From NCBI GenBank assembly GCA_050952645.1, contig JBMNLI010000012.1:32001-96000 (forward strand): a stretch of DNA of 64,000 bases, read 5' to 3'. The notes beneath the pieces are model-generated. The model searched no databases. It saw only the letters and a program-made list of their open reading frames with translations, and was not told the DNA's origin. Made by a program: the position numbers and the translations under genes. This DNA comes from Bdellovibrionota bacterium (lineage in GTDB: Bacteria; Bdellovibrionota_C; UBA2361; CAKMMH01). This document shows positions 112-59,714 of this stretch, one piece after another. Numbering within the stretch: position 1 is the stretch's first letter; each line of letters opens with the position of its first letter.

Positions 112-3100
112 GTGATTTTGTTTAATATGCATTTCTTAAAAATTTTAAAATCTAATAATAAATCTAATAGCAAATTTAATAATAAAGCTTTAAAGATGAG
201 TAGAAATTCAAAAGGAGAGGTCCTTGTAAGTTTCGTGCTTGCTGCAATAGTTTTTATTGCTATTGCGTTTGGTATTATGGAGATGGGCATCTTTGCATAC
301 AAAGAGGTTGTAGCTAGCGATAAACTTAAAACGATCGTAAGAAAAGCTGAGTCGAGAAGCGAACTGTTTATAGACTTAAGTGCTAGTGAGCTTTTAAATA
401 TAAGAGATAGAACTTGGTATCCTTGCACTCCTGTATGCGATGATAAAGGGGTGGCTTCATGTGTAGAAGATTATAGGCTAGTATTGCCAGGAAGTCCCGT
501 TACTTGTAAAGAGGTATGTGATTTTTGGAAAACATCGTATGAGTTAGCAAAGTCTGAAGGAGATATGCGTGGCATACTTAATAATGATGTGCCAGATGTG
601 GTATACGATAAAAATGGGACTTGTAAAGCAAAGGTCGCTTTGGTGCTTCCAGGGTTTGAAAGCAAATCTATAAACCCAGATGACCCTAGTGCAGTAAAAG
701 AGTTTAAGGCTATTAATACGACTCATACCGTGTTAAGACTATTACAAGGCAAAGGGAGTATAATAGCAAAAACGAATGTAATAAAAACGAAAGGCTTATT
801 TTCTTTTTATAGCGATGGAGTATTTAAACATGAAACGTTTCACGTTGGAAAGCCTAGAATGGCGATAGTAATAGATGATGATGTTCCACCGCTAAGTCCG
901 TCTAGTTCTAGTAGTTCAAAGAGTTCGCCTAGTAGCTCGTCAACGATTAGTCCTTCTTCTAGCTCTAGTAAGAGTAGTTCTTCTAGTAGCAGGTCTAGTA
1001 GTAAGAGTAGTTCATCATCTAGTAGTTTATTAAGTTCTAGTTCTTCTAGTAGCTTATCGTCTAGTAGTTTATCGCTAAGTAGCAGTAGCAGTTTATCTAG
1101 TAGCAAAAGTTCTTTATCGTCTAGTATCTCATTGCTAAGTAGCAGTAGCAGTTTATCATCGCTAAGCTCGTCAAGCTCTTCGTCTAGTTTAAGTAGCTCT
1201 TCTAGTTCGAGTTTAAGTAATGGCAGTTCATTATCTAGTTTAAAGAGTTCGCCTAGTAGCTCGTCAACGATTAGTCCTTCTTTTAGCTCTAGTAAGAGTA
1301 GTTCTTCTAGTAGCAGGTCTAGTAGTAGGAGTAGTTCATTATCTAGTAGTTTATTAAGCTCTAGTTCTTCTAGTAGCTCATCGTCTAGTAGTTTATCGTT
1401 AAGTAGCTTATCGCTAAGTAGCAGTAGCAGTTTATCATCGCTAAGCTCGTCAAGCTCTTCGTCTAGTTTAAGTAGCTCTTCTAGTTCGAGTTTAAGTAAT
1501 GGTAGTTCATTATCTAGTTTAAAGAGTTCGCCTAGCTCTAGTAAGAGTAGTTCATCGTCTAGTAGCTTATCGCTAAGTAGCAGTAGTAGTTTAGCTAGTA
1601 GCAAAAGTAGTTCTAGTAAGAGTAGCTCTTTTAGTAGTTTATCATCTAGTCTAAGTATCTCTTCTAACGGTAGCTCGTTATCTAGTAAGTCATCTAGTAA
1701 ATCTTTAGCTTCTAGTAGTTTTTCTTTGTCTTCAAAAGATGTTGATTTAAGTTGGTCTTCTGAATTTAGTAGAATTTCATCATCTAATAGAAGCAGTGAA
1801 ACTTCTAATAGTTTTAGTGTAAGCGAAAGTTTTGATTCTTATAGTTTTAGTGATAATAGTTTTAGCGATAATAGTTTTAGTGATGCTAGTTCTAGTTATA
1901 GCAATGATGGAAGTTTTAGTAGTTTATCATCGAATGGTGGGGGCTGTAAGTGTCCTAGTGGTTATGTATGTTTAGATGATATAGAAGGGGACGATAATCC
2001 TAGTGGCGTAGGCAATAGATGTTGCAATAAAGAAGATGGCACGCCAGGGACTGGCTGTTGTAAAGAAGATAATTATTTTATAGGAGATAATGGCGAGCAA
2101 CTATGTTGCGAAGATGGAGAAACTCCAAAATACGTTATAGATGTAAACGGCAACTCGGTTTTTGTATGTAATGCTAGATGCCCAGATGGAAGCGTAGAAA
2201 ATGAAACGGGTAGAGTTATAGTAAGTGATGAAAAAAGTTATAATGAAAAAATTTGTTGCCCAGCAGATATTCCAGACTTTAAGGGATTTGGATATTTTAC
2301 TGGCGTTCCAGTATGTTGCAAAGAAGAGGAGATTTTTTGTCGTAGTGCATGTTGCAAAAAAGATGAATTTTGTGCTGATATAGCAGGCACTTTAAGGGCT
2401 TTTCACGATAACAAAAATGGCTCGCTAGAGCCTTTACCTGCTCAAACGTGTTGTAAAAAAGAGGGGCAAGTTTTTTGTGGTGGCACGTGCTGTGAGGCTG
2501 ATAAGTGCATAGCTCCGCTAGGGACGATTAGACCTAATCAGCGAATTAGCGAATATGTGTGCTGCCTTGGTAGTATTATAACGCATGAAAGCGGTGTGTT
2601 AGAATGCTGTGATACAACGGAAGATAAAAATGTAGTAATAGGTGATATATGTTGCAAAGCTGAGCTCGTATACACGGAAGATAATGAGCAAAAATGTTGC
2701 GATGGAGATTTACAAGAGGTTGAAATAGGAGGCGTTAATGCTAACACTAGCGACAAAAGTGTTTCTGTTGCTTCTTTTAGTTCTACTGCTTCTAAAATAA
2801 AAGAAAGTGGCGATAAGGGAGCTTATAGCATCGATTCTAACACTAGCAGTGTTAGTTTAGATGATAACAAATCTACTATTAAAGTATGTTGTCCTATGGG
2901 GCAGACTGCGTTCGTTGATACTTATGGCAATCCTAGATGTTGCGATGGAACTGCTTATAGAAATCTAAGCGGCAACATGGAATGTTGCCAAACGAATGAA
3001 AGAAAATCATCAACTAATTATTTAAAAAAATATAGTCTAGTAGAAAGAGTAGACGCTACGGGACACACGCAATACGCTTGCTGCCCTAATATGGTTAATA

Positions 3101-4107
3101 ATGCGTATGCGTATTTTAATAATGGTATTTTAACTTGTTGTGGAGAGCATAGAAAAAATTACACATTAGCTGGGCAGGAAATATGTTGTGAAACGAAAAA
3201 TCATGAAGATGCAGATGGCACAGTTTTTATAAATAGCGATGGAAAGATAGAATGTTGTGATAAAGAAAACCATAAAATAAAAGAAGCAGGGGGTAAAAAG
3301 ATTTGCTGTATTGGCAATTCAACGGCTTATATAGATGGTAGTGGTAGCATTCAGTGTTGTGAATATACAGGCGAAGGGGATTATGTAGGAGGTAAGGGAC
3401 ACGTTCAGCATAGAGTTATAGGGAATGTATGTTGTGAAGCGGAAAGAGTGTATACGGATTACCAAGGGTTTGTTCGTTGTTGTGAAGCCGATTTAAAGAC
3501 TATTCCTAATGATGATAAGAAATATTGTTGTAAAGATGGCGAGCTTCCTTATATTGATAGTGATGGTAGTGGTGAGTGCTGTGATATTAAAAAAATATAT
3601 TTAAAAGATGGGAAGCGAGAATGTTGCGAACACGACTTGTGTGGCGATAAGTGTTGTAAAAAAGATGAAAGTTGCATAGATGGTGTGTGTGCAAGGGTTA
3701 ATGAAGATGAAAATTGTCTAGGTGATGCGTGTAAGGAAGATGAGGATAGTAAAGAGGATAGTAAAGAAGATAGTAAGGAAGATAACGAAGAATACAATTG
3801 TATGCTTAGAGAGAGTTTTAAATCTGTAGATTGCACGCCAGGCGATAAGACTAAAGAATGTTGTGGAGGTAGTTGCATATGGTTTGATGAGGTTAAAAGA
3901 TATATGTGTTCGCTTCCTGAAAAGAATTATGGTAAGCCTTGTGAAAGTGATGCGGATTGTGATGATGACACTTATAGGTTAAAGTGTGAAAGTGGTAAGT
4001 GTGTTTTTTCTAAGTGTCCTATTGCACGTTGTATTAGAAATGATGGCTCTACTTATATGGCTCCACTTTGTGGAACTTGCGAGAAGAATGGAATGACTAC
4101 ACCTTAA
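112..4107 (+). CDS. Large surface protein: TadE/pseudopilin-like N-terminus, Ser-rich stalk, Cys-Cys repeat region (start may be ATG 196)
   Basis: SRNSKG|EVLVSFVLAAIVFIAIAFGIMEMG hydrophobic helix; ~340-aa Ser tract (nt ~895-1932); about 28 CC dyads counted in the C-terminal half. Confidence 0.75.
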   Translation: MILFNMHFLKILKSNNKSNSKFNNKALKMSRNSKGEVLVSFVLAAIVFIAIAFGIMEMGIFAYKEVVASDKLKTIVRKAESRSELFIDLSASELLNIRDRTWYPCTPVCDDKGVASCVEDYRLVLPGSPVTCKEVCDFWKTSYELAKSEGDMRGILNNDVPDVVYDKNGTCKAKVALVLPGFESKSINPDDPSAVKEFKAINTTHTVLRLLQGKGSIIAKTNVIKTKGLFSFYSDGVFKHETFHVGKPRMAIVIDDDVPPLSPSSSSSSKSSPSSSSTISPSSSSSKSSSSSSRSSSKSSSSSSSLLSSSSSSSLSSSSLSLSSSSSLSSSKSSLSSSISLLSSSSSLSSLSSSSSSSSLSSSSSSSLSNGSSLSSLKSSPSSSSTISPSFSSSKSSSSSSRSSSRSSSLSSSLLSSSSSSSSSSSSLSLSSLSLSSSSSLSSLSSSSSSSSLSSSSSSSLSNGSSLSSLKSSPSSSKSSSSSSSLSLSSSSSLASSKSSSSKSSSFSSLSSSLSISSNGSSLSSKSSSKSLASSSFSLSSKDVDLSWSSEFSRISSSNRSSETSNSFSVSESFDSYSFSDNSFSDNSFSDASSSYSNDGSFSSLSSNGGGCKCPSGYVCLDDIEGDDNPSGVGNRCCNKEDGTPGTGCCKEDNYFIGDNGEQLCCEDGETPKYVIDVNGNSVFVCNARCPDGSVENETGRVIVSDEKSYNEKICCPADIPDFKGFGYFTGVPVCCKEEEIFCRSACCKKDEFCADIAGTLRAFHDNKNGSLEPLPAQTCCKKEGQVFCGGTCCEADKCIAPLGTIRPNQRISEYVCCLGSIITHESGVLECCDTTEDKNVVIGDICCKAELVYTEDNEQKCCDGDLQEVEIGGVNANTSDKSVSVASFSSTASKIKESGDKGAYSIDSNTSSVSLDDNKSTIKVCCPMGQTAFVDTYGNPRCCDGTAYRNLSGNMECCQTNERKSSTNYLKKYSLVERVDATGHTQYACCPNMVNNAYAYFNNGILTCCGEHRKNYTLAGQEICCETKNHEDADGTVFINSDGKIECCDKENHKIKEAGGKKICCIGNSTAYIDGSGSIQCCEYTGEGDYVGGKGHVQHRVIGNVCCEAERVYTDYQGFVRCCEADLKTIPNDDKKYCCKDGELPYIDSDGSGECCDIKKIYLKDGKRECCEHDLCGDKCCKKDESCIDGVCARVNEDENCLGDACKEDEDSKEDSKEDSKEDNEEYNCMLRESFKSVDCTPGDKTKECCGGSCIWFDEVKRYMCSLPEKNYGKPCESDADCDDDTYRLKCESGKCVFSKCPIARCIRNDGSTYMAPLCGTCEKNGMTTP
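919..1600 (+). repeat. In-frame internal duplications in the Ser tract
   Basis: aagagttcgcctag block starts at 919, 1243 and 1522 (periods 324 and 279 nt) with long near-identical stretches. Confidence 0.85.
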
Positions 4108-4180
4108 ATGAAAAGGTGATATTTAATATAATCTATTTATATATAATTTAAGTTTATATAATTTAAGACTATTTATATTT

Positions 4181-4915
4181 ATGCAAACATCGATAACTCC
4201 ACAGCAAAAAAAATATGCAAGTGCTAATAATGCACTAAAGTTGTACAAGTCTTATATAGTTGGGGAAGAGAGTTCTTATATAACTTTAATCATCTATGAG
4301 TTTCTAGTTTTTTTAGGAAATTTTACACCTAGTATATTTGGTGTGGCGATTAGAATTTTAGTATATAAAATTTTTCTTAAAAAATTAGGCAAGAAATCTT
4401 ACTTTGGAAAAAATGTAGAGATAAGAAATCCATCGAAAATTAAAATTGGTAAAAAGGCTATAGTCGATGATAATGTATTAGTAGATGCTAGAGGAGAAAA
4501 TGCTAATATCGATATAGGAGATTTTACGCTTATCGGGAAGAATACGATGATAATTTCTAAAAATGCAGATATTAAATTAGAAGATGGAGTTAATATTAGT
4601 TCTTTTTGTAGGATTGCTTCTGAGTCTAAAATTCATATAGGAAAAAGCACTCTTATTTCTGCTTATTCATATATAGGCCCTGGGAACCATAGTATAAAAG
4701 CGGATGAAAATAGCCAAAGGGCTAGTGAAAAAATGGATATTAAAGGGGGAGTCTATATCGGTGATAACTGCTGGGTAGCGACTAGGGCTACCATCTTAGA
4801 TGGAGTAAAAATTGGCAACAATTCGATAGTTGCAGCTCACTCATTCGTTAACAAAGATGTCCCTGAAAATGTTATCGTAGCTGGCACTCCTGCAAAGATT
4901 ATAAGGTATTTATAA
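4181..4915 (+). CDS. Hexapeptide-repeat (LbH) acyltransferase, probably glycan O-acetylation
   Basis: IGKKAIV/IGDFTLIG/IGDNCWVATRATILDGVKIGNNSIVAAHSFVNKDVP...AGTPAK. Confidence 0.85.
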   Translation: MQTSITPQQKKYASANNALKLYKSYIVGEESSYITLIIYEFLVFLGNFTPSIFGVAIRILVYKIFLKKLGKKSYFGKNVEIRNPSKIKIGKKAIVDDNVLVDARGENANIDIGDFTLIGKNTMIISKNADIKLEDGVNISSFCRIASESKIHIGKSTLISAYSYIGPGNHSIKADENSQRASEKMDIKGGVYIGDNCWVATRATILDGVKIGNNSIVAAHSFVNKDVPENVIVAGTPAKIIRYL

Positions 4916-4928
4916 AATAAAATTTTTT

Positions 4929-5026
4929 GGTTCTTTCACGTTTTAGGTGGGTTAAGAAAATTGTTTCTTTTGGGCTTCGTGGATGAGTGATTATGAGAGC
5001 AAGCTAACCTTAAAATTGTGAAGAAC
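4929..5026 (+). mobile_element. Internally deleted copy of the MITE at 57290
   Basis: Starts ggttctttcacgttttaggtgggtt, contains tcttttgggcttcgt, ends aaccttaaaattgtgaagaac. Confidence 0.7.
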
Positions 5027-5158
5027 TTTTTTTTTACTTTTTTACGTTTAGGGGGAGGGATTTTAGTCTTGTAAGTTTTAGGTTAATGATTATATAATAT
5101 TTTTACTTAAGTTTTTTTATTACGGTATTTTTTTGAAAAAAGCAAATTGTTAATTTAA

Positions 5159-5904
5159 CCCCAAACTTCTTGTTGCAAGCTTGGAGAGTGTTGTGCATAT
5201 AGCAATTGGGAAACAGAGATATTTGTATGTTGTCCATCTGGTGAGACATATGATGAAAATACTGGTAGGTGTACAAATGAAAGTGAAGGTAGCACATGTA
5301 GCGGAAGTTATAATAGTTATGAAACGGAATCTGTAAGTAGTGTATCTAGTAAAAGTTCAGAAAGCCAAGCGAGTTGCGAAAGTGGCTCTTATGCTTGTGG
5401 AACTAATTGCTGTTCTAGTGAGCAAGATTGTTATAATGATAGAAGTGAATGTTGTGATGGTAAGTTTGTAAATGGGACGTGTTGCCCAACAGAGAGAGTT
5501 TACGATGGTTCTAAATGTGTGATGAGGGTAAGGTTGCTTATACATCATACTTAGGAAGTGGTTGCTGTGAGATAGATCGTATATATACGCATGATATTTA
5601 TGAATATTGTTGTCGTGAACCGTTATGTGGTGGTGAATGTTGTGGCGAACTAAGAGAATGTAATAATGGCGAATGTGTAGATAAAGAAGGATACTCGGCT
5701 AGTTCAGGCTCTCAAAGTATTTGCTTTCAACTGATTCAATATCAAGAAGAGTTGCTAAAGACAAAAAGTTCGGAGTTGGAAAAGCTTGATTCTATTTTAA
5801 GAATTGAAAAAGGAAAGATCTTTTTTCAATCAAGGAAAGACAGAGAAATTGAAATTGCTGAAGCTTTAGCAGGTGAAAACAAGGCGATGGGTAAGCAAAA
5901 TTAA
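5159..5904 (+). pseudogene. Start-less, frameshifted fragment of a Cys-Cys repeat protein
   Basis: Frame from 5162 reads QTSCCKLGECCAY...CCPSG...CGTNCCSS...TCCPTERVYDGSKC and joins ORF 5515..5904 after a 1-nt loss at ~5516; in-frame TAA at 5156 and no start codon. Confidence 0.7.
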
Positions 5905-39756: not shown

Positions 39757-40458
39757 TTAACCTTCATAATCTATAAATAAAATATTTTTCTTATACGTAG
39801 GAACAAAAGAAAAAATAAAAGAAGGTGGTTCTTTTATTACAATTACATTACTCTTAGATTTTACCGTAATATTATTAGTGCTACTTTTAAAAATTACAAA
39901 ATACATTTGAGTAGGGTCGTTTCCTATGATATCGAGTATCTTTATATCGCCTAAAGAAATTATAAAAGAAACGTTTTGTGTAAGTATAATATTTTCTAGT
40001 GCAATATTCCCAGAAGAAATAAGTATAGCGGAGTTTAAAGGGAGCAAGGCTTTGTTCGAGACTATATTGCCTAAATAAGCGTTATGCTCAAATTTAGAAA
40101 TATTACAAAATTTTTCTGAGATAAAATCTTCATTCGCAAAAAAGGGTTTGCTTTCTTTACAAGTAAAAGAGTTTTTTAGTATCTTATTAAAATTAAATTT
40201 TAATTTATTATCAGCAGGATAAGTTTTTATTTTCTTACTTAAATTATTCTTAGGATTTAAATAATTATTAAACTCTTTTTCATTTAATTTATGGTTTTTT
40301 ATTATCTCTTCACTAGAAAGATATATTTTAAATGATAATAAAAATATAAACTCAATAATGATAATAAAAACGAGAACTACTATTAGAATAGTTCCTTTTT
40401 GATTTTTATTTTTAATTTTATTTGCAGTTTTATTTTCAATATCCATTTTTATACTCAT
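39757..40458 (-). CDS. PilX/GspK-like pseudopilin
   Basis: NQKG|TILIVVLVFIIII leader without Glu+5; last of four overlapping genes. Confidence 0.6.
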   Translation of the reverse strand: MSIKMDIENKTANKIKNKNQKGTILIVVLVFIIIIEFIFLLSFKIYLSSEEIIKNHKLNEKEFNNYLNPKNNLSKKIKTYPADNKLKFNFNKILKNSFTCKESKPFFANEDFISEKFCNISKFEHNAYLGNIVSNKALLPLNSAILISSGNIALENIILTQNVSFIISLGDIKILDIIGNDPTQMYFVIFKSSTNNITVKSKSNVIVIKEPPSFIFSFVPTYKKNILFIDYEG

Positions 40459-41317
40459 TTATATAGGCTATAAAGTTAAAAAAGTTATCACGAGCGAGCA
40501 AATTATCTAAAGAATAAATCATATCTTTTTTATCTTTTGCATAAATTTTTAATTTACAGAAAAGGGTATAAAAGCCATTATTTAATTTATGAGAAAAATT
40601 AATATTAGAAATGTTTTGCATTAGTGGTTGATTTTCAACTATTTTATTATTTTTATAAGTTACGAAACGCAGAGTTTTATTTTGTGCTAAGTATATAGTG
40701 TAAGTAGATGAGATGGGGATAAATGCAAGAAATTTTATATTACTCGGGGCTTTTTTAGTTAAGATGCTTTTAGAGTTAGAAACTTTTGCAATGTAGCAAT
40801 TTTTATCTTTAGTTAAATTTAATGATACCTCAAAAAAATCGTCGCTTGTTAAGGCTAGGAACGTTCTAACGGCATCTATATTAGTTTTCTTTTTGAAAAA
40901 TGGGCATATATAGAAAGTATTTTTAAAGTAATGATTAGTTTTTAATAAGTCTATACTTTCTAATTTAAGGTAAGTAATGGCGTCGCTATTTTTGTTTTTT
41001 GCTAAATCGTCTTTTCTTTTTGAAATTTCGCTAAGTGAGTTATCTTTATATCGAATGTCGCTACTGTGAATAATAGGGTATATATGGAAGCTATGGGCGT
41101 CTAAGTCTTTTATGATTTTTAATAATATATTATTAGTTTTAGAAGTGGCGTAAATTTTATGCAAAAACTTTTTTGCGTAGTATAAATCATTAAAGCTGAT
41201 TTTAGTTAAAATAGCTATGCTTGCTAAGATACTAGAGCTTAAAAATAGGCTTAAGAGTATTTCTAAGTATGTAAAGCCTTTATTGCAATGTTTTAATCTT
41301 ATAAGTAGTTTTGCCAT
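40436..41317 (-). CDS. PilW/GspJ-like pseudopilin
   Basis: NKG|FTYLEILLSL prepilin motif. Confidence 0.7.
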   Translation of the reverse strand: MAKLLIRLKHCNKGFTYLEILLSLFLSSSILASIAILTKISFNDLYYAKKFLHKIYATSKTNNILLKIIKDLDAHSFHIYPIIHSSDIRYKDNSLSEISKRKDDLAKNKNSDAITYLKLESIDLLKTNHYFKNTFYICPFFKKKTNIDAVRTFLALTSDDFFEVSLNLTKDKNCYIAKVSNSKSILTKKAPSNIKFLAFIPISSTYTIYLAQNKTLRFVTYKNNKIVENQPLMQNISNINFSHKLNNGFYTLFCKLKIYAKDKKDMIYSLDNLLARDNFFNFIAYINEYKNGY

Positions 41318-41525
41318 ATTTATTTTTGCATTTTAAAACGGTAAGTGAATTTACGTTTCTAGATGTGCATATATTTGAAGAGTTATCTAAAGTGTCTAAA
41401 AATTTTATTTTATTTTGAGTTTGAATTTTGTAATCTTTTAAAGATGAGTTTACTATGCATGGAACGATTAGTAGAAGCATTAAAAGTGCTATACAAAATT
41501 CCAAAAATATTATTCCTTTTTGCAT
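41280..41525 (-). CDS. PilV/GspI-like small pseudopilin
   Basis: MQKG|IIFLEFCIALLMLLL. Confidence 0.65.
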   Translation of the reverse strand: MQKGIIFLEFCIALLMLLLIVPCIVNSSLKDYKIQTQNKIKFLDTLDNSSNICTSRNVNSLTVLKCKNKYGKTTYKIKTLQ

Positions 41526-41899
41526 ACTTTTTTTATCTGCCCCCTTAAAGAAATTATTATTTTACAAGTATAGTTTTTTAGGCTTAAGTTTATAGTGCTA
41601 GGAGTGCAAGTTAAGTTTTTGCAGCAAACCTGCGTAGTCGTTGTAGTAAGCGAGATTTTTTTATCTACATTAAAAGTTTTTATTTTTGCTTTCGTTTCTT
41701 TATTAAATATGCTGATTTGTTTCCCTGCAGTTTTAAGACAAATATTCTTATTTTGATTTAAGCTTAGCAAACTTAAATTGTTAAAAATATTTTGTGCTTC
41801 AGCTTCTATGGTAAATTTATTTTTCATAGAAGCTAAATTTACGATTCCTAAAACTCCGATACTAGTAAATATAATTATAGTTATTATAGTTTGATTCAT
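41510..41899 (-). CDS. FimT/GspH-like pseudopilin (no clear leader)
   Basis: N-terminal TM; C-terminal TPSTI.L...C.IIISLRGQI; first gene of the cluster. Confidence 0.5.
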   Translation of the reverse strand: MNQTIITIIIFTSIGVLGIVNLASMKNKFTIEAEAQNIFNNLSLLSLNQNKNICLKTAGKQISIFNKETKAKIKTFNVDKKISLTTTTTQVCCKNLTCTPSTINLSLKNYTCKIIISLRGQIKKVCKKE

Positions 41900-56721: not shown

Positions 56722-58684
56722 ATGTTAAAATTCCTTTTAACCTCAAACAGTCGATTGAAAAATTTCTTTAAAAATTTCTTTCAAAATAAAAATTTGATGA
56801 AAAATAAATATAAAAAGTCTCATTCGAGTCGTGGTAGTATTTTAACAGAAACAGGCTATAGTTTGTTTTTATTATTTTGTACTTACATGGGTAGTGACGA
56901 ATGTTTTCGTATTTGTTTTTCATGTGGTATGTTTAAATGAGAGAAATCTAGACTTGTTAATAGCTGTAGAAAATAGGCCAGTGCAATTTGTAGTCGATGT
57001 TTCACCTCATTTTATGGTAGCCTTAAGAGAGTATTGCCTAGACGGTTTAAGAGATACAGACGTTCCTAATTGTGAGTCTGTAAGGGGGAAAACTCGAAGT
57101 GAAATAGATGAAGTATGCGAAGTGCCTGAGGTGCAAGCTCTATCTAAAGATTGTCCTACTATATGTAAATTTTGGATTACGGCTTATAATTTAGCATTAT
57201 CGAAAAAGGTAGCGACGCCTAAGCAGCTAGGCTTTAAATATTTTGAGTTAAGAGGGGAGCCGTGTATAGCTAAGTATGGTATTTTAATTGCTTCTTCACG
57301 TTTTAGGTGGGTTAGAAAAATTGTTTTGGGGGTTAGCTTAAAAGAAAATTGGCTTTTATAGAAAACTATCTATAGTTTAAAGAAAAATTACAACTATATT
57401 TAAAGTAATTTATTTTATGCAAATTTCTTTAAAGTCAATTTTCTTTTGGGCTTCGTGGGGCGAGTGATACTAATTTTAAGGTCTAAAACCTACCTTAAAA
57501 CGTGAAGAGCCTTTTAATTCCTGATATAAAATTAGATAATGATAGTATAAAGACTACTAAACTCCCTCGAGAGTTTGTGGAGAAAGGAAAAATATGTAGA
57601 TTTTGTTCCCGTTGATAAAGAAAGTGAGACGATAAAACTTAGGACAATGAAGGGAGGGAAGATTTTTATTAAGTCTGGTATAATATTAGATATATTTAAG
57701 TTGTTAGATGATGAGCCTCTCATAGCAGATTCGTTTCATGTAGGTTTTTTTAGGACTGCGCAAATTTTCGATACATCTAGTTCACCTAAGGGGAGTTCGT
57801 CTAGTAGTAGTCCATCATCTAGTAGTTCATCGTCTAGTAGGAGCAGTTTATCTAGTAGCAGTGCATCTAGTAGTAGCATTTCTTCAAGTTTTTCTAGTAG
57901 TAGTAGTTTAAGTAGTTCTAGCTCATCTTTAAGTTCACCTTCAAGTTCATTATCTAGTAGCAAAAGTTCTAGCAAGAGTAGTTCTTCTAGTTCTTCTAGT
58001 TCTCTAAGTTCAAGCTTATCGCCAAGTAGTAGTAGTTCGTCTAGCTCTTCTAGTAAGAGTTCATCATTAAGTAAGAGTAGTTCGCCAAGTAGTAGCTCAT
58101 CTAGCAAGAGTTCGTCATCTAGTAGTAAGAGTTCGTCGTCTATTAGTTCTAGTTTAAGTAAGAGTAGTTCTTCAACCAAAAATCAGGGTAGCAATTATGG
58201 AGCTGATGGAGTGTGTTGCCCTAGGGAGTTTGATATAATGTGCGGTGGTGAAGGACAATGTTGTCCTGTAAATAGATGTATAGGCGAAGGTGGTGGTGCT
58301 AGGTGTGGTTGTTCTAGCGATGAAACAGAGTATACAGATAATAGCGGTAAAAAAGCGTGTTGTAAAACTGGTAGAATATATAACGAACAATATTGTTGCT
58401 CTCAGGATTTATGTAATGGAGTATGTTGCGAAGATGGAGAGACGTGTGATAATGGTGAATGTAAAGGAGAGTATAATTGTATGTCTGGGGAGAATTTTAA
58501 AAATGAAGGTTGCACGCCAGGCAATATGACTGAAGAATGTTGCGGAGGTAATTGTATGCGGTTTGGGGATGATATATACAGGTGTTCGCTTTGGGAAAAG
58601 AATTATGGTAAACCTTGCGAAAATGATGTAGATTGTGATAATTATAGACTAAAGTGCGAAAGTGGCAGGTGTGTAATTTCTTAA
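56722..58684 (+). pseudogene. Paralog of 112..4107, interrupted by a MITE and two 1-nt frameshifts
   Basis: SRG|SILTE TadE motif; CPTICKFWITAYNLA, CIAKYGILIP and DSFHVGFFRT match the first gene; Ser tract; CC repeats; shared C-terminal EYNCM...EKNYGKPCE...YRLKCESG.CV. Confidence 0.85.
57290..57511 (+). mobile_element. 222-bp MITE with ISL3-like ends and an 8-bp target duplication
   Basis: Imperfect ~24-bp TIRs gcttcttcacgttttaggtgggtt / aacctaccttaaaacgtgaagagcc; ttttaatt at 57282-57289 and 57512-57519. Confidence 0.85.
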
Positions 58685-58850: not shown

Positions 58851-59714
58851 ATGAAAAGGATTTTTGGTGTTGCCGTTTTGGCGTGTACTATTTTCTTTGG
58901 TGCTACTTGCTTTGGGCAAAAAGAAAATCTTGTTCCTAAAGGCGGAGAGAAGATTGAGAAAGTTATCCCGCAGGATAATGCACAGAATAACGCTCCGAAT
59001 ACTAATCTGACGCAAGAACAACTTAACTATAATCATCAGACGCTTATCTATGCTGAAATGATGGAGAAAGATAAGGCTACGTATTCGGGAGAATCTTTGT
59101 ATAGAAGGCTTGGCTTCCTTGAAAAGGGCATCACTAAATTTCAAAGTATGGTAGATGAAATTCAAGCCATTGGTGTTGATGCTAATGACATTCGAGTTGT
59201 GAATGGGTGTGATAGTCTTAAAAATTCTAACCTTCCAGTTTTAATTAAGAACGCTGCTGAAATTAGGTCTAGAATGCAAGAAGGCGTGCCTAAAAGACGG
59301 CCAGCAAGGAAGCAACTAGAAGCGAGTTTGTGGAACGACCCTGAGATTCTATATATTGTTGCAGAAATAAAGTTTTTTTGCGAATGTTCTGTTCGGGGTT
59401 GGGAAATAACAAAAAAGTACTCGCGAAAAGCAGCAGATGAGATAAAAGAGCCGATAGATAAAGCGGACAAAGTACTCAAACAGATGGAATATATCTGCAC
59501 TGGCATTTGTATGCAATTTTCCGAAGATAGTAAAGCTTACTGGGGAAATAAGCTTGGTATGGGTAAGCCAAAAACAGTCTACTACTTCAAGTCAGTAAAT
59601 GGAGAACGTAAAGCTTATGTTATGGGTAAGAGAGAAGGCACTGACGAAATACCAGAGGCAGTAATGCCAAACGACAACCGTAAGAACGTCAATAACCGTA
59701 GACGTGATCAGTGA
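58851..59714 (+). CDS. Hypothetical secreted helical protein
   Basis: Signal peptide MKRIFGVAVLACTIFFGATCFG; AGGA RBS; own promoter and terminator. Confidence 0.7.
   Translation: MKRIFGVAVLACTIFFGATCFGQKENLVPKGGEKIEKVIPQDNAQNNAPNTNLTQEQLNYNHQTLIYAEMMEKDKATYSGESLYRRLGFLEKGITKFQSMVDEIQAIGVDANDIRVVNGCDSLKNSNLPVLIKNAAEIRSRMQEGVPKRRPARKQLEASLWNDPEILYIVAEIKFFCECSVRGWEITKKYSRKAADEIKEPIDKADKVLKQMEYICTGICMQFSEDSKAYWGNKLGMGKPKTVYYFKSVNGERKAYVMGKREGTDEIPEAVMPNDNRKNVNNRRRDQ

Follow-up and report, generated by a model that had tools for sequence, protein, structure and literature searches.

Myxococcus carries pilus tips of the TadE/F/G type, whose variable, disulfide-rich ends set prey specificity (PMC12075869). 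Modular pilins bear grafted adhesive domains, tip complexes are capped by a subunit without the glutamate at mature position 5 (Glu5), and Glu5 is frequent but not universal among such pilins (PMC10191384). Partner recognition by predatory or host-dependent bacteria is still largely open, with Tad tip pilins as leading candidates (PMC12075869; 10.64898/2026.07.08.737194). In this study, we analyzed 64,000 nucleotides (nt) of a Bdellovibrionota genome (contig JBMNLI010000012.1, positions 32,001 to 96,000; this whole stretch is termed the window) and describe an intact, giant TadE-like pilin gene at positions 112..4107 of its forward strand. The reading we lean toward, by analogy with the Myxococcus Tip complexes (PMC12075869), is that the protein is a modular Tad minor pilin that may cap a pilus and present a variable disulfide rod as an adhesin. 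The gene is thus a concrete recognition candidate in an uncultured lineage.

The pilin head and the loss of Glu5

The focal gene encodes 1331 amino acids from GTG 112 and is single-copy; ATG 127, used in the near-identical record P0038, and ATG 196, which would give 1303 residues and is used in an Atlas record, are other possible starts. Its basic leader (112..216, + strand) ends in Gly35 at a predicted prepilin-peptidase site, G|EVLVS, and this glycine is in register with that of Glu5-bearing homologs. The leader is followed by a hydrophobic stretch of 20–25 residues (residues ~36–56), the single strongly hydrophobic stretch of the protein, which bears out the prepilin-like leader and helix proposed by a first-pass annotation made from the sequence alone. 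The TadE-family pilin head (residues 36–255; 217..876, + strand) is predicted to comprise this hydrophobic helix, a long alpha1, a Cys-rich insertion, a second helix, and beta-strands. The same annotation had described a small Cys-containing globular domain; the head does contain six cysteines, but with ~220 residues it is not small.

To place the head, we compared it with related genomes, with large protein collections, and with known structures. It aligns over its whole length with G001:C43 of the sister species (E 3e-16) and with G003:C14 (E 5e-11). Of the 91 order genomes, 12 gave matches to a profile built from five heads; the matches extend across the head in three genomes and are confined to the N-terminal ~80 positions in the other nine. 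Against 1.84 billion representative proteins, the profile found 31 sequences, of which 11 are pieces of this family and 20 match mainly in the N-terminal helix; the five of these 20 that were inspected all have TadE-like starts. An AlphaFold2 model of the head from nine sequences (predicted local distance difference test, pLDDT, 83.1; predicted template modeling score, pTM, 0.77) shows a first helix of 48 residues, then another helix and several strands; the single-sequence model was poor (pLDDT 40.6). With the head model, Foldseek returned no match at E ≤ 0.001, and VIA-align gave no significant match (best Z 5.4; Pseudomonas aeruginosa pilin at rank 27 with Z 3.8). A sequence search of the Protein Data Bank gave no match below E 1.4. 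None of 1048 candidates from a word-index search was a match to the focal head, but this search is insensitive, as it missed relatives of 40% identity. Locus scans gave one weak, unrelated match in one run and none in another. Collectively, the profile matches, the homologs above the family cut-off given below, and the model indicate a TadE-family N-terminus rather than an ordinary signal anchor.

Across the 10 heads compared, both the −1 glycine and the complete pilin head are kept in every case. Glu5 is present in five, and the other five all carry Glu at +1. The focal protein has Glu at +1 and Ser at +5, as do P0001, P0040, and P0070, and these four Glu5-less sequences group together (support 92/93, below the tool's star threshold); P0089 also lacks Glu5. 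An alternative cleavage that would make the glutamate the +5 residue was ruled out, as there is no Gly or Ala at the corresponding −1 position. The serine noted at +5 in the first pass is therefore present, and it turns out to be conserved in orthologs and no defect. Since it is conserved and tip complexes are capped by a subunit without Glu5 (PMC10191384), the loss fits a cap position, as far as sequence comparison goes.

Giant TadE proteins are not unique to the focal genus. Another genome of the order, G016, encodes two of them (1732 and 1553 residues), both Cys-rich and with few CC dyads (pairs of adjacent cysteines). They lie in tadE–giant tadE–tadG operons (L043:5344-13110 and L044:4156-11571), and their repeats match no Pfam family. 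In addition, the focal genome (G000) has an orphan TadE protein of ~830 residues without stalk or CC repeats (G000:C3:49137-51692), with counterparts in all four genomes of the family.

The serine stalk, the di-cysteine rod, and the tip

Behind the head lies a Ser-rich, low-complexity stalk (residues 263–609; 898..1938, + strand) of 347 residues, 68% Ser, matching the ~340-residue Ser tract first reported. It derives partly from internal duplications (172 nt twice at 96% identity and 149 nt twice at 95%). The ortholog in G001 has Pro/Thr repeats in place of the Ser stalk, which suggests that the character of the spacer rather than its sequence is conserved. For possible glycosylation, the genome encodes one Wzy_C-family protein and seven PMT_2-family proteins above the cut-off.

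The stalk is followed by a di-cysteine repeat region, the rod (residues 612–1207; 1945..3732, + strand), which is acidic and holds 27 of the protein's 28 CC dyads. In 5000 shuffles of residues 611–1331, 8.3 ± 2.3 dyads were expected, with a maximum of 17. The early count of about 28 dyads is thus accurate, while the spacing described as mostly 14–20 residues amounts to a bare majority (15 of 27 spacings). An acidic linker leads to the compact Cys-rich tip that had also been noted (residues ~1229–1331; 3796..4104, + strand), 77–80% identical in DNA to the tips of paralogs. A Cys-rich domain with 33% identity to the focal tip also occurs in an 875-residue protein (G000:C17:142080-144704), together with a signal-like segment and three repeats of ~60 residues.

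The rod was found in two of 41 related genomes, by profile in two of the four family genomes, and in one protein out of 6522 candidates in a profile search of a large protein set. The sole lead from the domain libraries comes from the G001 ortholog, in which Galaxin_repeat (PF24748) reaches 20.3 bits (E 5.5e-4), below the 28-bit cut-off. PF24748 has no match in the focal protein; genome searches gave 0/1 and 0/91 and are uninformative, as no control matched in the order-wide search. No usable match to residues 610–1331 was found in the ESM Atlas, and Pfam scans detected no lectin or adhesin domain. As galaxins have the CC spacing in common and little else even among themselves (PMC2726143), we treat the likeness as an analogy.

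A mosaic allele in the sister species

To reveal how the rod varies, we compared alleles of the gene in the sister species. Nine full-length alleles, among 15 listed of a 22-member cluster, are 87–100% identical per block of 100 residues. The G001 allele P0001 matches this common type at both ends, with identity of only 20–38% over residues 601–1100. Over residues 401–1000, in turn, P0001 is 90–100% identical to P0070, whose head (41–71%) and tail (28–35%) differ. The informative sites of P0001 are of the common type at 170 of 173 positions in residues 1–350 and at 111 of 111 in residues 1151–1301; in residues 451–950, 281 of 293 are of the P0070 type and none of the common type. Residues ~1005–1120 match either type poorly. 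A 4,591-nt contig from a different source carries a sequence almost identical to P0001, which argues against an assembly chimera without excluding it, as both may share one sample. Collectively, these comparisons point to a likely exchange of the rod between lineages in the sister species, with the ends left unchanged. The occurrence of natural alleles whose only difference is the putative binding rod makes specificity directly testable with recombinant domains.

Tad machinery, secretins, and possible disulfide formation

As expected from the first pass, no Tad assembly gene was recognized in the window, of which 13 open reading frames (ORFs) were scanned against Pfam. The genome check it had proposed turned out positive: two Tad loci, confirmed by Pfam, and one A24 prepilin peptidase are present. 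One locus lies on the window's contig, beginning ~12.5 kb past the window end, and encodes Flp, RcpC, TadA, TadB, TadC, and TadZ with no TadE/G gene; the other (contig C9) has TadE-like and TadG-like genes of its own and an Flp recognized by motif only. A separate two-gene tadE–tadG pair is conserved in G000, G001, and G002 (three of the four family genomes) and is a candidate for the natural partner of the focal pilin. A VKOR–DsbA fusion is also encoded and could form the disulfides of the rod. In Bdellovibrio, a shared PilD processes Flp1 (10.64898/2026.07.08.737194).

Exactly two secretins were found in each of the six order genomes tested (G000, G016, G023, G033, G028, and G012). With two Tad loci in G000 and no RcpA N-domain found in the four family genomes, a Tad system that shares another secretin is possible. 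Two further observations concern pilus and disulfide genes. Four consecutive prepilin-like genes, recognized by motif and order, occupy window positions 39757-41899 on the reverse strand, and we take their order to be that of a type IVa minor-pilin operon (FimT/PilV/PilW/PilX-like). The same DSBA-family gene, possibly by chance, adjoins both the C17 array of family copies (G000:C17:311600-312253) and the G016 giant-TadE operon (L043:4246-4848).

Paralogs and broken copies in the genome

The claim of a variable family holds: the genome carries 15 family loci that are multi-copy and mosaic. An intact leader, head, and frame occur only in the focal gene and at C17:323838-327083, and the full head family was found in only three of the 91 order genomes. 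The other subfamily, marked by G|SILTE, has heads ~95% identical at the DNA level; its intact member and the focal head share 24% identity. Lesions are shared among its copies in varying sets: five copies carry one +1 shift, four have an inverted-repeat insertion, and three contain a second +1 shift, a variant of which occurs in one more copy. Moreover, C-terminal blocks are shuffled between loci, and on C17 three headless copies with one common 5′ junction follow the intact paralog. The focal gene, at 66–80% DNA identity to these copies, stands apart as the stable, single-copy member. Since the background of frame changes is low (one of 49 conserved genes), the lesions are mostly real. The single background case is G000:C12:25915-27734, intact in G001 and with a frame change here. 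Nevertheless, an 823-nt contig of run X4 carries a paralog head free of all three lesions, so the decay may be strain-specific.

Two of the copies lie in the window. The first-pass annotation had seen a canonical copy at 56722–58684 with the same module order; the order is confirmed, while the copy (56797..58684, + strand) is a shortened, mosaic pseudogene of the G|SILTE subfamily, broken three times in its head. One +1 shift lies near 56852, just after G|SILTE, and another near 57567; between them is a 230-nt miniature inverted-repeat element (57282..57511, no strand assigned) with an 8-nt target duplication. The fragment reported at 5159–5904 is homologous to the family over 5166..5722 (+ strand) only. 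This orphan stretch derives from the C-terminal part of a G|SILTE-subfamily member, has a frame change near 5517, and lies behind the remnant of an inverted-repeat element. Its close matches (95–97% identity) are blocks of three other paralogs rather than the focal gene.

The ~230-nt inverted-repeat element is abundant genome-wide (207 BLAST pieces, 69 terminal-repeat matches), with 8-nt target duplications and sometimes in tandem arrays; because of this abundance, we dropped it as a specific mobilizer of family genes. At G000:C6:23380-25275, an insertion of ~1.9 kb lies inside such an element within a family copy, and its ends resemble those of a group II intron. A similar insertion at C7:128437-130334 carries a reverse-transcriptase-like ORF. 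Family copies are also co-duplicated with uncharacterized lipoprotein-like or exported-protein genes, at L052 (G000:C17:312-328 kb), at G000:C10:327-332 kb, and in the window, where the gene at 58851..59714 (+ strand) has a hydrophobic N-terminus and recurs behind family tips elsewhere in the genome. The two partner copies scanned had no Pfam match above the cut-off.

Neighborhood and strain variation of the focal gene

The genome measures 1.95 Mb at ~31% GC in 17 contigs and is 93.75% complete. Proteins from other genomes of its genus and order bear the label Bdellovibrionota in their source records. fliG lies directly upstream of the focal gene, ending just before the window, and a hexapeptide-repeat acyltransferase gene follows at 4181..4915 (+ strand), with no specific link shown. 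The order fliG–focal gene–acyltransferase is identical in G001, where the acyltransferase and GT2 keep the focal neighborhood. The family's other genus has the acyltransferase behind a gyrB-like gene (recognized by eye) and GT2 at another place, and G002 has both genes with no family match. The earlier suggestion that these two neighbors modify the stalk is therefore unsupported.

Contigs of four independent studies, three of them labeled bioreactor or anaerobic digester, cover parts of the focal gene; no RNA data set was among the sources listed. One of these spans 1692-5116 with 49 differences, and P0038, an independent protein record, differs mainly in the stalk. Among the 27 strain differences listed, 12 of 17 are synonymous in the rod and two of 10 in the stalk; an apparent clustering of the listed differences was dropped as a claim. 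In run X3, the head has no cover, and contigs have loose ends at 2637 (X4) and 3677 (X5). Collectively, these data show that the gene is real and suggest that it is under constraint.

A possible mechanism and its alternatives

Taken as a tip cap, the focal pilin would likely be cleaved after Gly35 by the single prepilin peptidase of the genome and assembled first as the Glu5-less subunit, together with small TadE/TadG partners encoded elsewhere. Because no RcpA was found, we propose that the pilus would leave the cell through a borrowed PilQ- or GspD-type secretin. The VKOR–DsbA fusion would make the disulfides of the rod, and the stalk may be O-glycosylated. The flexible Ser stalk would then hold the disulfide-bonded rod off the cell as an adhesin for another cell or surface, and binding specificity could be altered if homologous exchange replaced the rod and left the two ends constant. 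In such a scheme, the protein would be surface-displayed and might recognize prey or host. A bolder version, which we regard as unlikely, holds that this uncultured lineage with its small genome uses Tad pili that have no secretin of their own and end in giant TadE-type pilins. The disulfide rod of these pilins, ~600 residues long and of a fold not yet described, would be a host- or prey-specificity module. Species would trade this module at one constant locus, partial copies would serve as an archive for its further diversification, and host range would be switched by cassette exchange at the tip.

Several observations weigh against the tip-adhesin reading. Against PF07811, the whole protein scores 14.3 bits, the head alone 17.4, and the genome search gave 20.1, all below the 22.9-bit Pfam gathering cut-off. 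G001:C43 (26.3 bits) and G003:C14 (23.1 bits), to which the head aligns throughout, pass it. The focal protein is thus a homolog of TadE members and no curated PF07811 member, and the family assignment proposed for checking stands for the homologs, not for the focal head. A charged +1 residue is rare among the prepilins of the genome (one of 19 listed). The gene lies in no tad operon, being an orphan between fliG and the acyltransferase gene, and G002 (92% complete, 130 contigs) has the tadE–tadG pair and no family match. The RcpA N-domain (PF13629) was found in none of the four family genomes, and the focal genome has only two secretins, GspD-like and PilQ-like as read from context, which leaves the route across the outer membrane unexplained. 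This raises the question of how Tad pili cross that membrane when no RcpA is found. The nine full-length alleles listed from the main cluster of the sister species all share one core, so core swaps are rare there. In the focal species, no swap was seen, with one independent contig (1692-5116) and paralogs of at most 80% DNA identity for comparison.

The missing RcpA and the two secretins per order genome, the orphan position, and Glu at +1 without Glu5 would all suit a pilin domain that serves as an inner-membrane anchor only. Such a protein would be uncleaved or unassembled, and its stalk and rod would act within the periplasm or as part of a short pseudopilus confined by the outer membrane. 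We consider this improbable: all 10 heads compared keep Gly −1 together with the complete pilin head, tad minor-pilin operons contain related giants, and a mosaic core would suit a surface-exposed part better than a periplasmic one. Alternatively, the rod may be displayed at the surface and serve a structural or chemical role, as a cross-linked coat, a spacer, or a metal- or sulfide-binding fiber, with variation as evasion of phages or predators. Di-cysteine repeat proteins have been discussed as framework proteins (PMC2726143), the rod is acidic, no known lectin or adhesin domain was detected, and the ortholog has its weak Galaxin_repeat likeness (20.3 bits, E 5.5e-4). That match, however, is below 28 bits, absent in the focal protein, and plausibly compositional, and a tip subunit at one copy per pilus would be too scarce for a coat; this explanation appears slightly more doubtful than the anchor.

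Programmed antigenic variation, in which the broken and headless copies would form a silent archive for expressed genes including the focal one, draws on the 13 of 15 loci that are broken or headless. The three headless C17 copies with a common 5′ junction, and identical lesions in different combinations against a frame-change background of 1/49, point the same way. Yet the X4 contig head lacks the lesions, which may thus be limited to certain strains; inverted-repeat elements abound in the genome (207 BLAST pieces); the copies are too unlike the focal gene to exchange sequence with it; G001, in a fragmented assembly, has only two family loci; and no switch was seen among the contigs compared. 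We therefore judge it quite improbable. The co-duplicated genes recall, finally, a polymorphic toxin–immunity system with variable C-termini, each paired with a small exported protein, as the headless C17 copies alternate with a duplicated lipoprotein-like gene and a duplicated exported-protein gene follows tips on C10 and at 58851. The C-termini, on the other hand, consist of short Cys-rich modules that matched no enzyme, C17 has near-identical lipoprotein-like genes (three of its four) behind different tips, and the focal gene has no such partner, which makes this reading very improbable. The tip adhesin thus remains the explanation toward which we lean.

Comparison with known systems

Searches of domain libraries and literature found no described family with this architecture; most subscription papers were outside the coverage of the literature search, and the alignments of tip pilins in the Tip paper may bear on the Glu5 argument. 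In Neisseria pilE/pilS and Borrelia vlsE, antigenic variation is cassette-based. As in these systems, constant ends surround a variable core, and headless partial copies lie near an intact gene. In contrast, the sole swap matches a divergent full-length relative rather than a silent cassette, and no switching is shown here. Galaxin-like repeats (PF24748; PMC2726143) share tandem CC dyads ~15 residues apart and Ser richness with the focal protein, and galaxins are extracellular. They are, however, animal matrix proteins with ordinary signal peptides; the focal protein has no PF24748 match, and homology is not shown.

PilB and PilC of Streptococcus sanguinis (PMC10191384) likewise carry a non-pilin domain grafted on a pilin for display at the tip. 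The focal protein differs in being of the Tad rather than the type IVa kind, and its graft is an unrecognized Cys–Cys rod behind a mucin-like spacer. The focal protein also resembles the minor pilins TadE/TadF (PF07811) and, in Myxococcus xanthus, the KilL/KilM/KilN Tip complexes (PMC12075869). Both have a class III-type leader, a long alpha1 with a beta-rich head (as modeled for the focal protein), a C-terminal extension, many cysteines, several dispersed paralogs, and Tad machinery in the genome. Compared with KilLMN, the focal protein has ~1,050 extra residues of stalk and di-cysteine rod, and its gene is an orphan outside any three-gene tip cluster. In addition, the large subunit without Glu5 here resembles TadE and not TadG, RcpA was not found, and variation is by internal recombination. 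Collectively, the focal protein would work like a modular tip pilin, though in formal terms it belongs neither to PF07811 nor to the three-gene Tip clusters, and it extends modular pilins to ~1,300 residues with an unclassified di-cysteine repeat.

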